DNA from: a virus
Taxonomy: Duplodnaviria > Caudoviricetes
Strand: one strand, 5' to 3'
IMG/VR virus record: IMGVR_UViG_3300017911_000749
Coordinates: 1-32,100 of that record
DNA: 32,100 nucleotides
Part shown: in pieces, positions 3,652-28,245 of the stretch
Position numbering within the stretch: the stretch's first letter is position 1
Layout of the letters: the number at the start of each line of letters is the position of its first letter
Made by a program: the position numbers and the translations under genes
The notes under the pieces: model-generated
Database searches by the model: none
The model's input: the letters and a program-made list of their open reading frames with translations, nothing else
What the model was told of the DNA's origin: nothing

Positions 3652-3860
3652 TTATATCTCCTACTCCAAGTAATACTATTAACTGCATCATCCTTGGGTT
3701 TATGATGCGATAGGCGACAAAAAAATAATTAAGAATAACGAAAATTGCCAGCCACTTTAGGCTATTCAGATACTAGGCGAATTTAATACGCAGCTTACAC
3801 GCCAGATATAAGCTGGAGAGTGCAGCATCCATTTATAATCGGAGACGTCCGCAATCCGAT
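3652..3860 (-). promoter_or_regulatory. Structured 5' leader of scaffold/capsid operon
   Basis: Minus-strand TATAAT at 3867-3872; stems ATCGGA/TCCGAT (3838-3860), CCAG/CTGG and GCATCAT/ATGATGC (3685-3708); no ORF of note. Confidence 0.55.
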
Positions 3861-3879
3861 AATATAATTATATACTATA

Positions 3880-3972
3880 AAAATAAAATAGTGGGTTTTT
3901 TACACCCACTATTTTTATATTACGTACACGAAAGGAAGGTTATATCTAGTCCATTGCTGGAAAAGAATCCTT
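3880..3972 (-). ncRNA. Candidate small RNA carrying anti-RBS sequence ACCUUCCUUU
   Basis: Extended -10 TGTTATAAT at 3979-3987 (minus), ~90 nt with no convincing ORF, ends in terminator 3885-3915; contains a CCA-GCAA-UGG tetraloop hairpin. Confidence 0.55.
3885..3915. terminator. Intrinsic terminator, potentially bidirectional
   Basis: AAAATAGTGGGT/ACCCACTATTTT inverted repeat with T-runs on both strands. Confidence 0.8.
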
Positions 3973-3999
3973 AAAAAAATTATAACACAAAAAAAAACA

Positions 4000-4028
4000 T
4001 GTAACCTTTTTTTTATCACGTAGTCTAA
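4000..4028 (+). promoter_or_regulatory. ECF-sigma-type promoter motif copy 1
   Basis: TGTAACC-N16-GTCTAA, 26 nt before ATG 4055. Confidence 0.7.
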
Positions 4029-4054: not shown

Positions 4055-4180
4055 ATGTACGGTGCATTTGATACTGTTGAAGAGTATGAAGCATTTGTAA
4101 AAGATGGTGACTGGTTTATAGATACAGAATCACCAGAGTATTGGAAGCAATTAATTGAGAATGCGAAGGAGGGTAAGTAA
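4055..4180 (+). CDS. Small acidic hypothetical protein (41 aa)
   Basis: MYGAFDTVEEYEAFVKDGDWFIDTESPEYWKQLIENAKEGK; GAGGA RBS; TAATG coupling to next gene. Confidence 0.7.
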   Translation: MYGAFDTVEEYEAFVKDGDWFIDTESPEYWKQLIENAKEGK

Positions 4181-4557
4181 TGGCTAAATATAAAGAGTTT
4201 GATAAAGGTGATTTATCTAAAAACGAATTACTAAAAGATAACTCGTATAACGATATTACTTATTCTATATTGGGTCACCAGCTTGATACAATCTGGTGGA
4301 AGCAAATTAACCATGAGAAGCTATCTACTGGTGAAGTTGGTAGCGGTTATCAAATTGATTTTGTAGATGGGACTCAGCTTAAGTTATCTACCTTACAGTT
4401 ATTCAGTATTATCAATGATTTTGACTTGACAAATATTGAAACTCATAGATGGACATTACATGAGCTAGATGCTGATACATGGAAGGGTAAAGTAAGAGAA
4501 GAAGAATTTTACATAGATGTTCATGATTCCAAAGTGTATGTAATGGAGGAAGAATAA
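4180..4557 (+). CDS. Hypothetical protein (125 aa)
   Basis: ORF track; AGGAGG RBS; coupled on both sides. Confidence 0.8.
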   Translation: MAKYKEFDKGDLSKNELLKDNSYNDITYSILGHQLDTIWWKQINHEKLSTGEVGSGYQIDFVDGTQLKLSTLQLFSIINDFDLTNIETHRWTLHELDADTWKGKVREEEFYIDVHDSKVYVMEEE

Positions 4558-4706
4558 TGTCTTGGTTTATTAATATAGATAATCTAGTTGTTGACATAGA
4601 GAACATTGAGGACTTACAAGATATGAGACGAGTCTTTTATGTAGCTTCTAAGAAACTAGGAGAGTTACAATATATAGATAAATACGAAAGGAGACATAAT
4701 GTTTAG
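4557..4706 (+). CDS. Small hypothetical protein (49 aa)
   Basis: MSWFINIDNLVVDIENIEDLQDMRRVF...; GGAGG RBS; TAATG overlap. Confidence 0.65.
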   Translation: MSWFINIDNLVVDIENIEDLQDMRRVFYVASKKLGELQYIDKYERRHNV

Positions 4707-4836
4707 TTGGCAGGGACTAATATTATTCTTAGGTGCATGTTACGGTATCTACTTGACAGGAGTTCTGTTAAGAGAACTAACTAACGATGCTAAAGAATCT
4801 ATTGCTATCTGGTTAGACGATAGAAAAAACAAATAG
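4699..4836 (+). CDS. Small single-TM membrane protein (45 aa)
   Basis: MFSWQGLILFLGACYGIYLTGVLLREL...; AAGGAG RBS; hydrophobic N-terminal helix. Confidence 0.65.
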   Translation: MFSWQGLILFLGACYGIYLTGVLLRELTNDAKESIAIWLDDRKNK

Positions 4837-20842: not shown

Positions 20843-20907
20843 TACCTTTTGGTCCTGACTTTGTTACGTTTCATACCTTTTTTTGGCTTATAATGTTTAC
20901 CTGGCAT
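20842..20907 (-). CDS. Tiny Lys/Arg-rich peptide (21 aa)
   Basis: MPGKHYKPKKGMKRNKVRTKR; AGGAGA RBS; TAATG coupling to next gene. Confidence 0.65.
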   Translation of the reverse strand: MPGKHYKPKKGMKRNKVRTKR

Positions 20908-20928
20908 TTGTTCTCCTATACTTTAATT

Positions 20929-21135
20929 ATGGCAGAATACATATCGGGTAACAAGTACCCGAACTTCAAAAAGAATACACAGTATCAGAAAAACCGAATC
21001 TGCGTGCATTCTGCTTGTACTACCATCTTATCTCAATATAACAAATATAAATACTGTCATAAACATAAACCTAGAACTTTTCCAAGAATCAAAGGTAGAA
21101 ACATAGATGAGACTAAACAAGAGCCTTTAGAATAA
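20929..21135 (+). CDS. Small Zn-finger protein (68 aa; C-x4-C...C-x2-H)
   Basis: RICVHSACTTILSQYNKYKYCHKH; ATG 20929 lies 6 nt after TATACT (leaderless). Confidence 0.65.
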   Translation: MAEYISGNKYPNFKKNTQYQKNRICVHSACTTILSQYNKYKYCHKHKPRTFPRIKGRNIDETKQEPLE

Positions 21136-21331
21136 ACAAAAGGACCTAGTCTTTCCTCCAGGTCCTTAAGTCGTACAGTCTGTCCATTTACTGTGTTATG
21201 AAAGAATACGAATCAAAAGTCAACCTTATTCATCTATAACAATCCTAGAACTGTCTCGTGATGTTAAGCTATCTTTCTTTTCATATCTTTGCCTATATCC
21301 CCATACAGGCAACCTTAGACTTTCTAAGGTG
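21132..21331 (-). ncRNA. Candidate ~190-200-nt structured RNA / late-operon attenuator leader
   Basis: Minus TATAAT at 21337-21342; consecutive hairpins; ends in terminator 21140-21167. Confidence 0.55.
21140..21167 (-). terminator. Intrinsic terminator
   Basis: AAGGACCT/AGGTCCTT stem followed on the minus strand by TTGTTTATT. Confidence 0.7.
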
Positions 21332-22261: not shown

Positions 22262-22861
22262 ATGAAAACAAAAACACAAAACACAATTACATTCTTGATT
22301 GGCGCTAGCGGTAGCGGTAAGTCAAGGCATGCAAGGAAACTTGCAAAAGATACAAATGCATTCATTATTGATGCTGATGAGATTAAATTAGCTCTTAATA
22401 AGAATATGCCAGTTGATTCAGATACTAATGCGGCTTTGCATCCAGCGGCTTCAGAATTATCTCAACAGCTGTTATTTAATTACATTTATAATCCAGATGC
22501 ATTCTTAGCTCGATACAACAAAGATACAGTTATTTTTGATAATCGTGGTAAAAATTGGGATAAGGTCCAGATGCGCATAGATGCCGCATTACAAGCTGGC
22601 TTTAAGGTCCGCTTCGTTTATGTAGAAAATAATCTTGCATCTTGCTTGCTCAATGTACATAGACGCAACCGTACTAGCGCTCGTAAAATGTTTTTATCCG
22701 TATGCGCTAAAGACTTCGGTGGTACTGTGTACACTTCAGAAAAACTCAAAGAATATGCGAAGGCTGGCTTGATTGAGTTAGACATTGTTGAAGGCTTCAA
22801 GTCAGTCAAAAATAGATTCTTAATAAATCTTTGTAACCTAATTGTAAAAGTAATAGTCTAA
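22262..22861 (+). CDS. Zeta-toxin-like / AAA_33 P-loop kinase
   Basis: Walker A GASGSGKS, IDADEIK, VIFDN, AGFKVRFVYV, NVHRRNRTSARKM lid. ATG 22262 preferred to GTG 22238. Confidence 0.75.
   Translation: MKTKTQNTITFLIGASGSGKSRHARKLAKDTNAFIIDADEIKLALNKNMPVDSDTNAALHPAASELSQQLLFNYIYNPDAFLARYNKDTVIFDNRGKNWDKVQMRIDAALQAGFKVRFVYVENNLASCLLNVHRRNRTSARKMFLSVCAKDFGGTVYTSEKLKEYAKAGLIELDIVEGFKSVKNRFLINLCNLIVKVIV
22832..22861 (+). promoter_or_regulatory. ECF-type promoter motif copy 3
   Basis: TGTAACC-N17-GTCTAA; the TAA is also the kinase stop codon. Confidence 0.7.
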
Positions 22862-22885
22862 ATAATAAAGGAAGGTAAAGACATA

Positions 22886-23101
22886 ATGAAAACATATAAA
22901 GAAATAATCAAAGACTGGAATAACAAATTCGATACAGTACGAATTGAATCTGGTGAATGGGTAAACGGTGAAGCAGCATTCAGAATGTACATTGAAGAAG
23001 GTCACACTGTTTATTACTCACTAAGTCACACACTAAAAGACTTCGTCAGCGGTAAGGAAATCTATCAATATTGTTTTGATAATTTTCTTCCAACCGTGTA
23101 A
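22886..23101 (+). CDS. Hypothetical protein (71 aa)
   Basis: ORF track; AAAGGAAGGT RBS. Confidence 0.75.
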   Translation: MKTYKEIIKDWNNKFDTVRIESGEWVNGEAAFRMYIEEGHTVYYSLSHTLKDFVSGKEIYQYCFDNFLPTV

Positions 23102-23126: not shown

Positions 23127-23145
23127 GATAAGGAAGGAAGGAAAA

Positions 23146-23643
23146 ATGGGTCAAGGTAATTGTTATCCAGCGGCATGGAATGCCATTAACTTTGTAAAAA
23201 AATCTGATGATTGGGTAGTGGTCCATGCGCTTAGAGATATCTTCAAAGGTGGTAATCACTTCGGTGGTCATGCATTCTTGTTAAATAAAAAAACAGATAC
23301 TGTTTACGATGACTCAATCAGCGCCAAATATATTGATGGTTCTGTTGACGGTGTTGTTGATGGTATGCCACTCAAAGAGTATGCAGAAAAAACTTATCTA
23401 TTAACTGAAGGTAAGTATGTCTGGAAAGAATACTCAATGAAAGAGCTTAACATTATTACTTTTATGCATGGATATCACAGTCCTTTTGACTTAGCCAAAG
23501 AGCGATGGGATTTATCACCAGAAGAATTTGAATCTAAGTTTCCTGGATTCAAAGACATTGCAGATTATATGAAAAATTATTTTCAGCCAACATTCGAGCC
23601 GCATTGGGTCGAGTTACAGAAGATGGCAGAGGAGGTGGAATGA
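23146..23643 (+). CDS. Protein with papain/transglutaminase-like Cys-His-Asp triad (165 aa)
   Basis: GNCYPAA, GHAFLL, VYD in the canonical order; AGGAAGG RBS. Confidence 0.55.
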   Translation: MGQGNCYPAAWNAINFVKKSDDWVVVHALRDIFKGGNHFGGHAFLLNKKTDTVYDDSISAKYIDGSVDGVVDGMPLKEYAEKTYLLTEGKYVWKEYSMKELNIITFMHGYHSPFDLAKERWDLSPEEFESKFPGFKDIADYMKNYFQPTFEPHWVELQKMAEEVE

Positions 23644-23769: not shown

Positions 23770-23787
23770 GTAAAGGAAGGAGAAATT

Positions 23788-23934
23788 ATGAAGGAAGCAC
23801 AAGAGTTCTATGAGGCTTTAAAGATAGTAGTTAATTTAGATATGCATTCTTTAGATGAGTTTTCATACGACACATTTATGGAGTTAGAGACTGTATTACA
23901 TAAATACAAAACAGCACTGGAGGAAGAAGAATGA
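23788..23934 (+). CDS. Small acidic hypothetical protein (48 aa)
   Basis: AAAGGAAGGAG RBS; MKEAQEFYEALKIVVNL... Confidence 0.65.
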   Translation: MKEAQEFYEALKIVVNLDMHSLDEFSYDTFMELETVLHKYKTALEEEE

Positions 23935-24487: not shown

Positions 24488-24510
24488 CGTGAAACAAAAG
24501 GAAGGAAAAC

Positions 24511-24702
24511 ATGTTGGACTATGAGTTCTTCAAAGCAATCAGTGGATTGACTGATGAAGATTTAGAACTAACTAAAGACAGTGTGCTTAACTGCAATAAC
24601 TGTTTTGCTTTGATACCAGGTGAGATACTACAAGACGCAGGTAATGCGTTCTTCTTGAGTGATTACACTTGCGAAAAATGCCAGGAGCCATTGGGTTTAT
24701 GA
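24511..24702 (+). CDS. Small Zn-binding protein (63 aa; CNNC...CEKC)
   Basis: Two CxxC pairs; AAAGGAAGG RBS. Confidence 0.7.
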   Translation: MLDYEFFKAISGLTDEDLELTKDSVLNCNNCFALIPGEILQDAGNAFFLSDYTCEKCQEPLGL

Positions 24703-26183: not shown

Positions 26184-26202
26184 TATAGACAGGAAGGAAT
26201 AG

Positions 26203-26415
26203 ATGACAGAAGTTAAATCACCATTGCTTAATGATTTGCGTATGGCTGCAATGAGTATTGATACGTTTACTAAGAAGCGTAACAATACAATTAAATATCT
26301 ATTTGAGAATAGACAGTCACAAAAAATAACAGTAGATACTATTGCAGAAGCAGCTGGCATATCACGTAAGCATGTTTACACAATAGCGAAGGAAGGTAAA
26401 GATGCCGAACTTTAA
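26203..26415 (+). CDS. Helix-turn-helix DNA-binding protein (70 aa)
   Basis: TVDTIAEAAGISRKHVYTI HTH motif. Confidence 0.8.
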   Translation: MTEVKSPLLNDLRMAAMSIDTFTKKRNNTIKYLFENRQSQKITVDTIAEAAGISRKHVYTIAKEGKDAEL

Positions 26416-27286
26416 TTTAGAGAACTACGAAACAGTAGAAGAACGACTATCTAAGTACTGGAAGGACCATCCCAATGGTAGGATATGGACCGAAGTAGTA
26501 CAGATTAGTGACGATGGTTCTATAGTAACAATTAAAGCATTAGTCTATAAAGACATAGAAGATGTCAACCCAGTTGCAACAGGTATAGCCCAGGAGACTC
26601 AAGGTCAAGGTGGGTTTGCTAACAAGGATGCCTGGATGGAGAACTGTGAGACATCAGCTATCGGTAGAGCTTTAGCCAACTGGAAATACCAGGGCAGCAA
26701 TAAGCCAAGACCAAGCAGACAAGAGATGAGCAAAGTATCTGACAAGCCAGCAGCCAAGGCAGCTGCGCCTAAAAAAAAAGATACAGCACCAGAGAAGGTG
26801 AAGTCCCCTTCTAATGAACTCAAGCAAATCATATTAGATATGTGTAATGGAGACAAAGACTTTGCAGCTAACGTATGGAAGGTTACAACTGCAAGGATGG
26901 ATGTTAAGAAGGAGATGCCTAAAGATGTAGCAGAGTACACAGATGATAACCAAAAAGTATTCATTGATGTAGCTGCTAAATATATTGACAAGCAAAAAAA
27001 AACTTTTGAAGAACGTCAAGGTAATTCAGAAGCAATAAACAATGTCATTGAAACTTTCGATGACGTAGAGATAAAAGAAGGAGAAGAAGATATGGCTAAT
27101 ATTCCAGACGGAGAGTGGCAAGGACAAGAGATGAGTGATGCACAGAAGAATTTTCTAAGTTCACTTATTGACCAAGCAATTGATGACGGTAAGGACCAAC
27201 TAGCAGCAGAAGCTAAGACCTTTATGAACAGCGGTAATGCTACAAAAGGTAAAGCATCTGAATGGATTGAGAAACTAAAGTCATGA
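26402..27286 (+). CDS. Putative single-strand annealing protein (Rad52/Sak-like) with acidic C-terminal region
   Basis: NYETVEERL...HPNGRI.TE...ATGIAQE...ENCETSAIGRALAN motif; family from memory. Confidence 0.6.
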   Translation: MPNFNLENYETVEERLSKYWKDHPNGRIWTEVVQISDDGSIVTIKALVYKDIEDVNPVATGIAQETQGQGGFANKDAWMENCETSAIGRALANWKYQGSNKPRPSRQEMSKVSDKPAAKAAAPKKKDTAPEKVKSPSNELKQIILDMCNGDKDFAANVWKVTTARMDVKKEMPKDVAEYTDDNQKVFIDVAAKYIDKQKKTFEERQGNSEAINNVIETFDDVEIKEGEEDMANIPDGEWQGQEMSDAQKNFLSSLIDQAIDDGKDQLAAEAKTFMNSGNATKGKASEWIEKLKS

Positions 27287-27739: not shown

Positions 27740-27958
27740 ATGGTTATGGATATGATGGTTGAGGATAAAATCAAAGCCTCTGATATGTGGGAGATAAACA
27801 ATCCAAGAGTACATGCAGTCATGAGAAACTTGATGGTTCTTGTGGACCATTCAGATACAATACCAGATGAAATAACACATGAGGTTTTATCTTATGTATT
27901 GTCTTTGCTTGAAGCGTATGGTGACCCAAACTTTAAGGTACCAGTCCAGGCACAATAA
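27740..27958 (+). CDS. Hypothetical protein (72 aa)
   Basis: GGAGGAG RBS; coupled to SET gene. Confidence 0.65.
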   Translation: MVMDMMVEDKIKASDMWEINNPRVHAVMRNLMVLVDHSDTIPDEITHEVLSYVLSLLEAYGDPNFKVPVQAQ

Positions 27959-28245
27959 TGTACAGACCATTGCCAGATTTCCTGGCAGTACACCCTAGTT
28001 CAATAGATGGTGTTGGTATCTTTGCAATAGCAGACATACCAGCTGGTACATATATTGGATTAACTCATGTGCTTTGGTTCGGAGAGCCGAACAACTTATT
28101 GAGAACACCACTTGGTGGTTTTATAAATCATAGCGATACACCAAATTGCAAATTAAAAGGTAAGGTTATGAAACATTTATATGCAACAAGTGATATATCA
28201 ATAGGAGACGAACTAACTATTACGTATAGTTTGTATCAAGTCTAA
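27958..28245 (+). CDS. Minimal SET-domain protein-lysine methyltransferase
   Basis: SSIDGVGIFA..DIPAG (GxG), FINHSDTPNC (NHS), GDELTITY (ELxxxY). Confidence 0.85.
   Translation: MYRPLPDFLAVHPSSIDGVGIFAIADIPAGTYIGLTHVLWFGEPNNLLRTPLGGFINHSDTPNCKLKGKVMKHLYATSDISIGDELTITYSLYQV

Follow-up and report, generated by a model that had tools for sequence, protein, structure and literature searches.

Does the short minus-strand interval at positions 3880 to 3987 encode a small RNA directed against the ribosome binding sites (RBS) of distant early genes, as an earlier note on this DNA had proposed? The window, i.e. the whole stretch of 32,100 nucleotides that was analysed, comes from a viral record estimated to be 84% complete. 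Head, terminase and lysis genes lie on its minus strand, and a block of small genes occupies the plus strand at about 22.2-28.2 kb; the plus strand is called early and the minus strand late below, labels that were assigned from gene content.

The interval contains an element, named unit A, composed of a −10 box, a hairpin capped by GCAA, the ACCUUCCUUUCG core and a terminator, all of them conserved. Related records that have it are called carriers. The parts of unit A and the two neighbouring promoter-like signals are the following:

3979..3987, minus strand: extended −10 box TGTTATAAT, assigned to the predicted RNA gene and read in the sequence
3880..3972, minus strand: predicted non-coding RNA of about 90 nt, its start placed from the −10 box (fold z score −4.2; alignments A1 and A2)
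3968..3972, minus strand: 5′ AAGGA of the predicted RNA, whose invariant GGA would, in the predicted folds, pair with either CC of the seed but not both
3950..3961, minus strand: 4-bp stem with an invariant GCAA (GNRA-type) tetraloop, compensatory changes in two pairs
3927..3940, minus strand: seed ACCUUCCUUUCGUG, complement of AAAGGAAGGU, its 12-nt core kept in homologues
3885..3915, minus strand: intrinsic terminator-like hairpin of 12 pairs, with T-runs on both strands and one compensatory pair
3867..3872, minus strand: separate −10 box TATAAT of the scaffold/capsid operon, found by sequence comparison in non-carriers too
4000..4028, plus strand: divergent TGTAACC-N16-GTCTAA promoter-like motif that overlaps the −35 region of the RNA promoter, TGTAACC being present here in 12 of 16 carriers

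The extended −10 box and the terminator of the earlier note were both located where it had read them. Its description of some 90 nt devoid of a convincing open reading frame also held, and no plus-strand ORF beneath unit A is conserved. At the sequence level this is the stand-alone layout (promoter, no conserved ORF, intrinsic terminator) of a trans-encoded sRNA, and a short conserved seed complementary to distant sites fits the same class. The hexamer TATA(A/C)T was found in 16 of 16 carriers, the extended TG in just 7 of them. The promoter was missing from a consensus promoter scan of the window, and no −35 match was evident by eye. No Rfam family was matched at gathering level by unit A in the window and six loci. 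The RNA data consisted of contigs of one run, from a non-carrier relative; they cover the scaffold and capsid genes only, with zero cover on unit A or on the second unit (unit B) described below, which counts neither for nor against a transcript.

Next, the sites to which such an RNA could bind were examined. On the plus strand of the window, AAAGGAAGGT occurs at 3931 and 22867 only. AGGAAGG is found eight times on the plus strand (3933, 22869, 23131, 23135, 23774, 24499, 26191 and 26390) and never on the minus strand. One of these copies lies in unit A and the other seven at six early starts, which are the six places that had been cited:

22867..22876, plus strand: predicted target RBS of ORF 22886-23101, a 10-nt exact complement
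23130..23141, plus strand: predicted target RBS of ORF 23146-23643, a double AAGGAAGG (motif match)
23772..23780, plus strand: predicted target RBS of ORF 23788-23934 (motif match)
24497..24505, plus strand: predicted target RBS of ORF 24511-24702 (motif match)
26191..26197, plus strand: predicted target RBS of ORF 26203-26415 (motif match), an ORF with weak helix-turn-helix matches below cut-off
26389..26397, plus strand: predicted target RBS of ORF 26402-27286 (motif match), an ORF with no Pfam match

The syntenic counterpart of ORF 26402-27286 in a relative belongs to the Rad52/22 family. The motif stands at 6 of the 19 early genes and is missing from 13; AGGAGG was found at 6 of 24 plus-strand starts. 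That late starts avoid AGGAAGG was confirmed, since none of the 24 called minus-strand starts has it. These starts were taken from a simple gene caller, which chose internal starts for some long late genes, and the annotated starts of these miscalled genes likewise have no AGGAAGG. The best 7-mer of the RNA body matched 6 of 19 early SD windows, a result equalled by 31 of 5000 dinucleotide shuffles. The predicted binding energy of the seed was −11.7 kcal/mol for early and −5.9 for late starts, a gap that is not specific support because a plain 16S-tail probe reproduces it (−9.5 versus −5.6).

Unit A is a real conserved element. A viral search with the terminator pattern, in which the seed was not used, gave 37 matches including 13 homologues, and a metagenome search with a terminator-plus-leader pattern, again ignoring the seed, gave 82 (49 homologues and 33 unrelated sequences). 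The 12-nt seed core was unchanged in 13/13 and 49/49 homologues respectively, two sets that overlap and include near-copies; the seed is kept, as had been anticipated, in relatives with AGGAAGG RBSs. A viral scan by the seed alone returned mostly chance matches among the matches listed. Unit A was present at 9 of 78 scaffold-gene loci, and in most others the upstream gene abuts the scaffold promoter directly, without such a terminator. Carriers correspond to one terminase clade (support 100/100). Among 15 additional records of this clade, four extend into the region and all four have unit A. The capsid tree scatters carriers among non-carriers (5 changes, no clustering), and clade-specific genes run from 4886 to about 28000. 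There is usually one orphan intergenic AGGAAGG copy per carrier, which is unit A itself. One record, L339, has a carrier-clade terminase (86%) yet GAAAGGA-type early starts; it is a short record and likely a recombinant.

The alignment of 22 distinct sequences showed a fixed order: TATA(A/C)T, GGA, GCAA-loop stem, seed, terminator. GGA lies 8-9 nt downstream of the −10 hexamer in 22 of 22. Pairing was found in 98.8% of the alignment cells. Compensatory changes affect two pairs of the GCAA stem (UA 16/GC 4/CG 2 and AU 18/GC 4), which also shows one C-G to U-G change, and one pair of the terminator (UA 13/GC 9). Compensatory cells numbered 19, compared to 5.2 (+/−1.6) in shuffles, and none of 500 shuffles reached this value. 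Support from covariation is nevertheless moderate, because two stricter counts were at shuffle level (3 pairs, 163/500; pair types, 409/500). Folding of the 93-nt unit gave z scores of −4.2 for the minus strand and also −3.1 for the plus strand; the GNRA loop and the C-G to U-G change favour the minus strand as that of the RNA. As for the suggestion that 5′ AAGGA folds onto the seed and could gate it, its GGA is invariant and would, in the predicted folds, engage one of the two CC and leave the seed partly open. The 5′ GG pairs, in predicted folds, with either the first or the second CC, the other being partly open, and the first CCUU and CCUUUCG have predicted mean unpaired probabilities of 0.27-0.61 and 0.41-0.88, respectively.

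To follow seed and RBS across relatives, 33 related records and the window (16 carriers and 18 non-carriers) were compared. In the carriers, 73 of 239 genes on the early strand and 2 of 303 on the late strand have AGGAAGG in front of them; in the non-carriers, 6 of 274 early-strand genes do. The near-complete non-carriers contain 0-2 copies of AAGGAAGG. Ten of the non-carriers have another minus-strand unit, unit B, with a −10-like box, a UUCCUUUCU seed and a terminator. Its neighbours are a small gene on one side and a Rad52/22-family gene on the other, and promoter-like boxes stand there back to back:

L309:1501-1549; also G018, G023, G025, G027, G028, G031-G034 and G036: unit B, antisense-like to AGAAAGGAA-spacer-(A/T)TGAATA

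Unit B is complementary to the AGAAAGGA sites of its own genomes, where GAAAGG was found at 41 of 193 early starts, versus 5 of 193 for AGGAAGG. Four genomes with no detected unit have AGGAGG at 28 of 64 early starts and AGGAAGG at none. The last four records fall outside this three-way split, three having 1-3 early genes and G037 having no match to the Rad52-family gene. One phage family presents three states: AGGAAGG sites together with seed A, AGAAAGGA sites together with seed B, and canonical AGGAGG with no detected unit. Exact matches of at least 8 nt to seed A were found at 71 of 239 early starts in carriers, 18 of 193 in unit-B genomes and 0 of 64 in unit-less genomes; for seed B the counts were 9, 24 of 193 and 0 of 64. 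Seed A is therefore sharply matched to its early starts and seed B less so, 71 versus 9 being a much clearer difference than 24 versus 18. The predicted co-variation of seed and RBS was observed: the seed goes with AGGAAGG early RBSs and is absent where these are, and the sister group has another seed and another RBS. Since unit A and its RBS were inherited together, this co-occurrence amounts to only one or two evolutionary contrasts, and as both are constant within the clade there is no compensatory seed/RBS pair to count.

In several genomes, unit B is predicted to pair over about 20 nt with the adjoining Rad52-family start; the energy lies between −16 and −22 kcal/mol for 9 of 10. This gene may be its main target. 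Scanning by pattern gave 17 B-type loci, of which some lie in records already compared; plus-strand frames at these loci have 16-31 codons and an ATG or TTG start, and differ among loci. Unit B is not a detectable homologue of unit A, because a search of L339 and the 18 non-carriers with the unit A model (R1) gave no match at E <0.5; the best one, in L339, had an E of 0.65. A third type of seed was sought in the AGGAGG-using genomes and none was found, their sole orphan AGGAGG being inside a stem. The unit of G016/G021 does not fit the RBS of these genomes. The AGGAGG-using phages do have a conserved long intergenic hairpin with AGGAGG (G021:36470, G024:1248 and G016:23796, in reoriented coordinates), which was not counted as a seed because the complement lies within the stem. 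Finally, capsid genes do not separate carriers from non-carriers, which suggests shared hosts and would make a variant 16S tail of the host an unlikely cause of the RBS differences.

We consider it fairly probable that unit A is a trans-acting anti-RBS RNA that damps translation of about a third of the early genes. From its anatomy, conservation, complementarity and early-strand bias we infer transcription, pairing in vivo and repression as follows. The conserved −10 box would start an RNA of about 90 nt at about 3972, the invariant seed would base-pair with the AAGGAAGG RBSs of about a third of the early genes, and pairing would block ribosome loading, so that the targeted genes would be damped as a group. 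The target motif is the canonical AAGGAGG with one extra A, and the seed has the matching extra U. This extra A/U could be a private address of the phage, sparing late genes led by GGAG or AGGAG. The trans-acting off-switch of the earlier note agrees with the comparative results, but its reach was overstated: "early regulon" is too broad, because the motif stands at only about a third of early starts.

Some information on timing comes from the promoters. Eight TGTAACC-N16-GTCTAA-like motifs, similar to ECF-sigma promoters, lie upstream of plus-strand genes of the window (4000, 22227, 22832, 23097, 23741, 24454, 25211 and 26154, plus strand). Of the 16 carriers, 13 have the motif, the exceptions being G007-G009; of the 18 non-carriers, 17 lack it. 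AGGAAGG starts of carriers are enriched behind the motif (26/56 versus 47/183, p 0.005). TATAAT-type boxes precede the unit A RNA and the structural operons. Judged by promoter type only, the RNA would be timed like the structural operons, as opposed to the early genes, which in most carriers follow TGTAACC-type motifs. In 12 of 16 carriers TGTAACC overlaps the −35 region of the unit A promoter in the opposite direction, and the two divergent promoters could be mutually exclusive.

Four other explanations were weighed. Unit A might mimic the 16S 3′ tail, its main targets being host mRNAs or a host factor binding the anti-SD, with the match to early RBSs as a by-product. A GNRA hairpin followed by a CU-rich tail, as in unit A, does recall helix 45 plus the anti-SD, and the seed also cofolds well with AGGAGG and GAAAGGAG starts (e.g. 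−18.6 and −18.7 kcal/mol at 4180 and 4699). However, the canonical anti-SD core is CCUCCU, and the seed deviates from it exactly as the early RBS of carriers does, a deviation nearly missing in non-carriers; unit B deviates toward the RBS of its own genomes. We find this explanation unlikely.

The region could also be an insulator made of DNA, i.e. a two-way terminator and promoter between divergent units, in which AAGGAAGG would be a DNA or protein-binding motif and no trans pairing would occur. T-runs on both strands of the terminator, its position between the divergent cassette and the capsid promoter, the folding of both strands and the lack of a unit A transcript among the contigs of one RNA run (that of the non-carrier relative) are compatible with it. 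It leaves unexplained why an invariant GGA follows the conserved −10 box by 8-9 nt, why the stem of the GCAA loop shows compensatory changes and why a parallel unit B exists, and non-carriers enter the scaffold promoter without such a terminator. It appears improbable to us.

The two remaining explanations are best discussed with the known systems. Most of what is understood about how phages turn off the synthesis of early proteins comes from T4 RegB, itself a protein. RegB uses the GGAG SD motif as an address, early transcripts being inactivated while late ones escape (PMC3014915). Unit A would likewise use an SD motif as an early address; RegB differs in being a protein nuclease that needs S1, whereas the reader predicted here is an RNA and the address is the non-canonical AGGAAGG. 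The c4 RNA of P1/P7 pairs around the RBS of a phage mRNA and blocks its translation (PMC12197685), and unit A is similarly predicted to pair at phage RBSs. By the same account c4 targets the ant mRNA and serves immunity, whereas unit A has its own promoter and terminator, and a single seed that would serve many unlinked genes at a distance of about 19 kb. The c4 Rfam model gave no match at E up to 1 in the window and six loci. Comparison of 45 proteins with PHROGs and of 14 with Pfam revealed no antirepressor, and the predicted targets are six unlinked early genes. P22 sar and lambda OOP are cis-encoded and have single targets. Like aQ, they are short phage RNAs that repress phage genes by pairing (PMC12197685); for aQ, that review states a single target and cis encoding. 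Unit A, by contrast, overlaps no conserved plus-strand ORF. The sole match of the Rfam sar model had 24.8 bits, versus a cut-off of 43. Unit B, beside its likely Rad52-family target, is closer to the sar/OOP/aQ type than unit A. By analogy unit A would work like both c4 and RegB, and it belongs to neither kind. In the literature covered, which included few subscription papers, no phage sRNA aimed at an RBS common to early genes was found described.

The c4 comparison raises the question of whether pairing with AAGGAAGG would serve superinfection exclusion, or immunity of a carrier state against incoming kin, rather than lytic timing. A seed invariant throughout the clade would hit the early genes of every relative, a housekeeping-type promoter could fire without phage proteins, and P1/P7 heteroimmunity rests on c4 (PMC12197685). 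Against this, no tyrosine integrase, the only integrase family searched, was found in 5/5 near-complete records, and immunity determinants usually diversify, whereas the seed of unit A is constant. We regard a role in exclusion as quite improbable.

In the last explanation, the plus-strand AAAGGAAGGT would be a relic, once the RBS of a gene now lost by deletion, or would serve a tiny TTG-started peptide. This is largely refuted and highly improbable: strand and letters are those of early RBSs and a TTG lies downstream in 22 of 22 aligned sequences, but this TTG is the reverse of the GCAA loop, its spacing is 12-14 nt versus 2-11 nt (mode 6-7) at 73 real starts, the frames have 4-50 codons and are unconserved, a terminator lies just upstream on the plus strand, and a relic would not stay invariant amid diverging flanks.

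The anti-RBS reading of unit A can be extended to other phages. We propose, as a tentative idea, that a private non-canonical SD code and one RNA reading it evolved repeatedly, forming an RNA-only switch of translation from early to late, and that this would also explain the SAS of Cluster K mycobacteriophages. The SAS is a 13-nt motif at RBS position before non-structural genes (PMC3203893 and PMC11373665). As late as 2024 its role was stated to be unknown (PMC11373665). A SAS-like motif is reported for Microbacterium cluster EF (PMC7302621), and a single reverse SAS exists in four K1 phages (PMC3203893). We located that of Anaya and CrimD:

L370:26871-26883 (Anaya) and L371:25836-25848 (CrimD): reverse SAS in a hairpin loop, stem changes keeping the pairing

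In both it is intergenic and belongs to the loop of a long hairpin that follows a conserved TAGACT box by about 100 nt. By synteny its position corresponds to the late transcription start that PMC11373665 reports for Adephagia. The region has matches in 182 phage records. Among 11 phages examined, the loop was exact in 4, a CU-rich variant in 3 and absent from 4 (Pixie, Hurricane, Oscar and Chris). It is not obligatory, because phages such as Pixie lack it; Pixie retains 16 SAS in the compared part. A private motif at RBS position with a reverse copy is what carriers have as well, an analogy of layout only. SAS and unit A have no sequence relation, the early starts of the window having AGGAAGG-type motifs and not the 13-bp SAS, and the reverse SAS seems to lie in a late-transcript leader whereas unit A is stand-alone and terminated. 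The reverse SAS in its hairpin loop makes the anti-RBS idea testable in a cultured phage. If the idea is true, one small RNA addressing a regulon by its RBS variant would be a compact RNA solution to early shut-off, and would give a reason for the over-conserved RBS motif on non-structural genes of some phages; matched seed/RBS pairs could serve as orthogonal translational repressors.

The host was also considered. The best annotated relatives of the capsid are from mycobacteriophages and Propionibacterium phages, which infect Actinobacteria (44-46% identity). That the host is a marine actinobacterium of low GC, for instance Ca. Actinomarina (32.5% GC and two sigma factors; PMC7771536), is no more than a guess. 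The sole GTDB match, one 4.6-kb contig binned in a Gammaproteobacteria MAG, was not trusted as a sign of the host. A homologue search with ORF 20893-21135 returned 5 proteins and was uninformative on the host. No tRNA gene was found in the window, and no phage sigma factor in 5/5 near-complete records.

Some other observations concern neighbouring genes. The early block encodes a P-loop kinase-like protein (22262-22861, plus strand; AAA_33, also Zeta_toxin family) and a SET-domain protein (27958-28245, plus strand; PF00856, E 6×10−11). Four small divergent ORFs (4055-4836, plus strand) lie amid structural genes, downstream of the promoter-like motif at 4000; homologues of the first two exist in 5/14 and 3/14 carriers respectively, and in no non-carrier.

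Two further non-coding elements were noticed. The scaffold gene has a leader of about 210 nt (3652-3862, minus strand), conserved and structured in carriers and non-carriers and with no Rfam match; in 16 sequences, compensatory changes affect 7 of 34 predicted pairs, and the predicted fold joins a CUCC to a GGAG close to the RBS of the scaffold gene. A third non-coding unit, at 21140-21186 (minus strand), consists of TGGACA-x-ACT(G/A)TACG followed by a terminator hairpin, and was found in 13 of 34 records, carriers and non-carriers alike.
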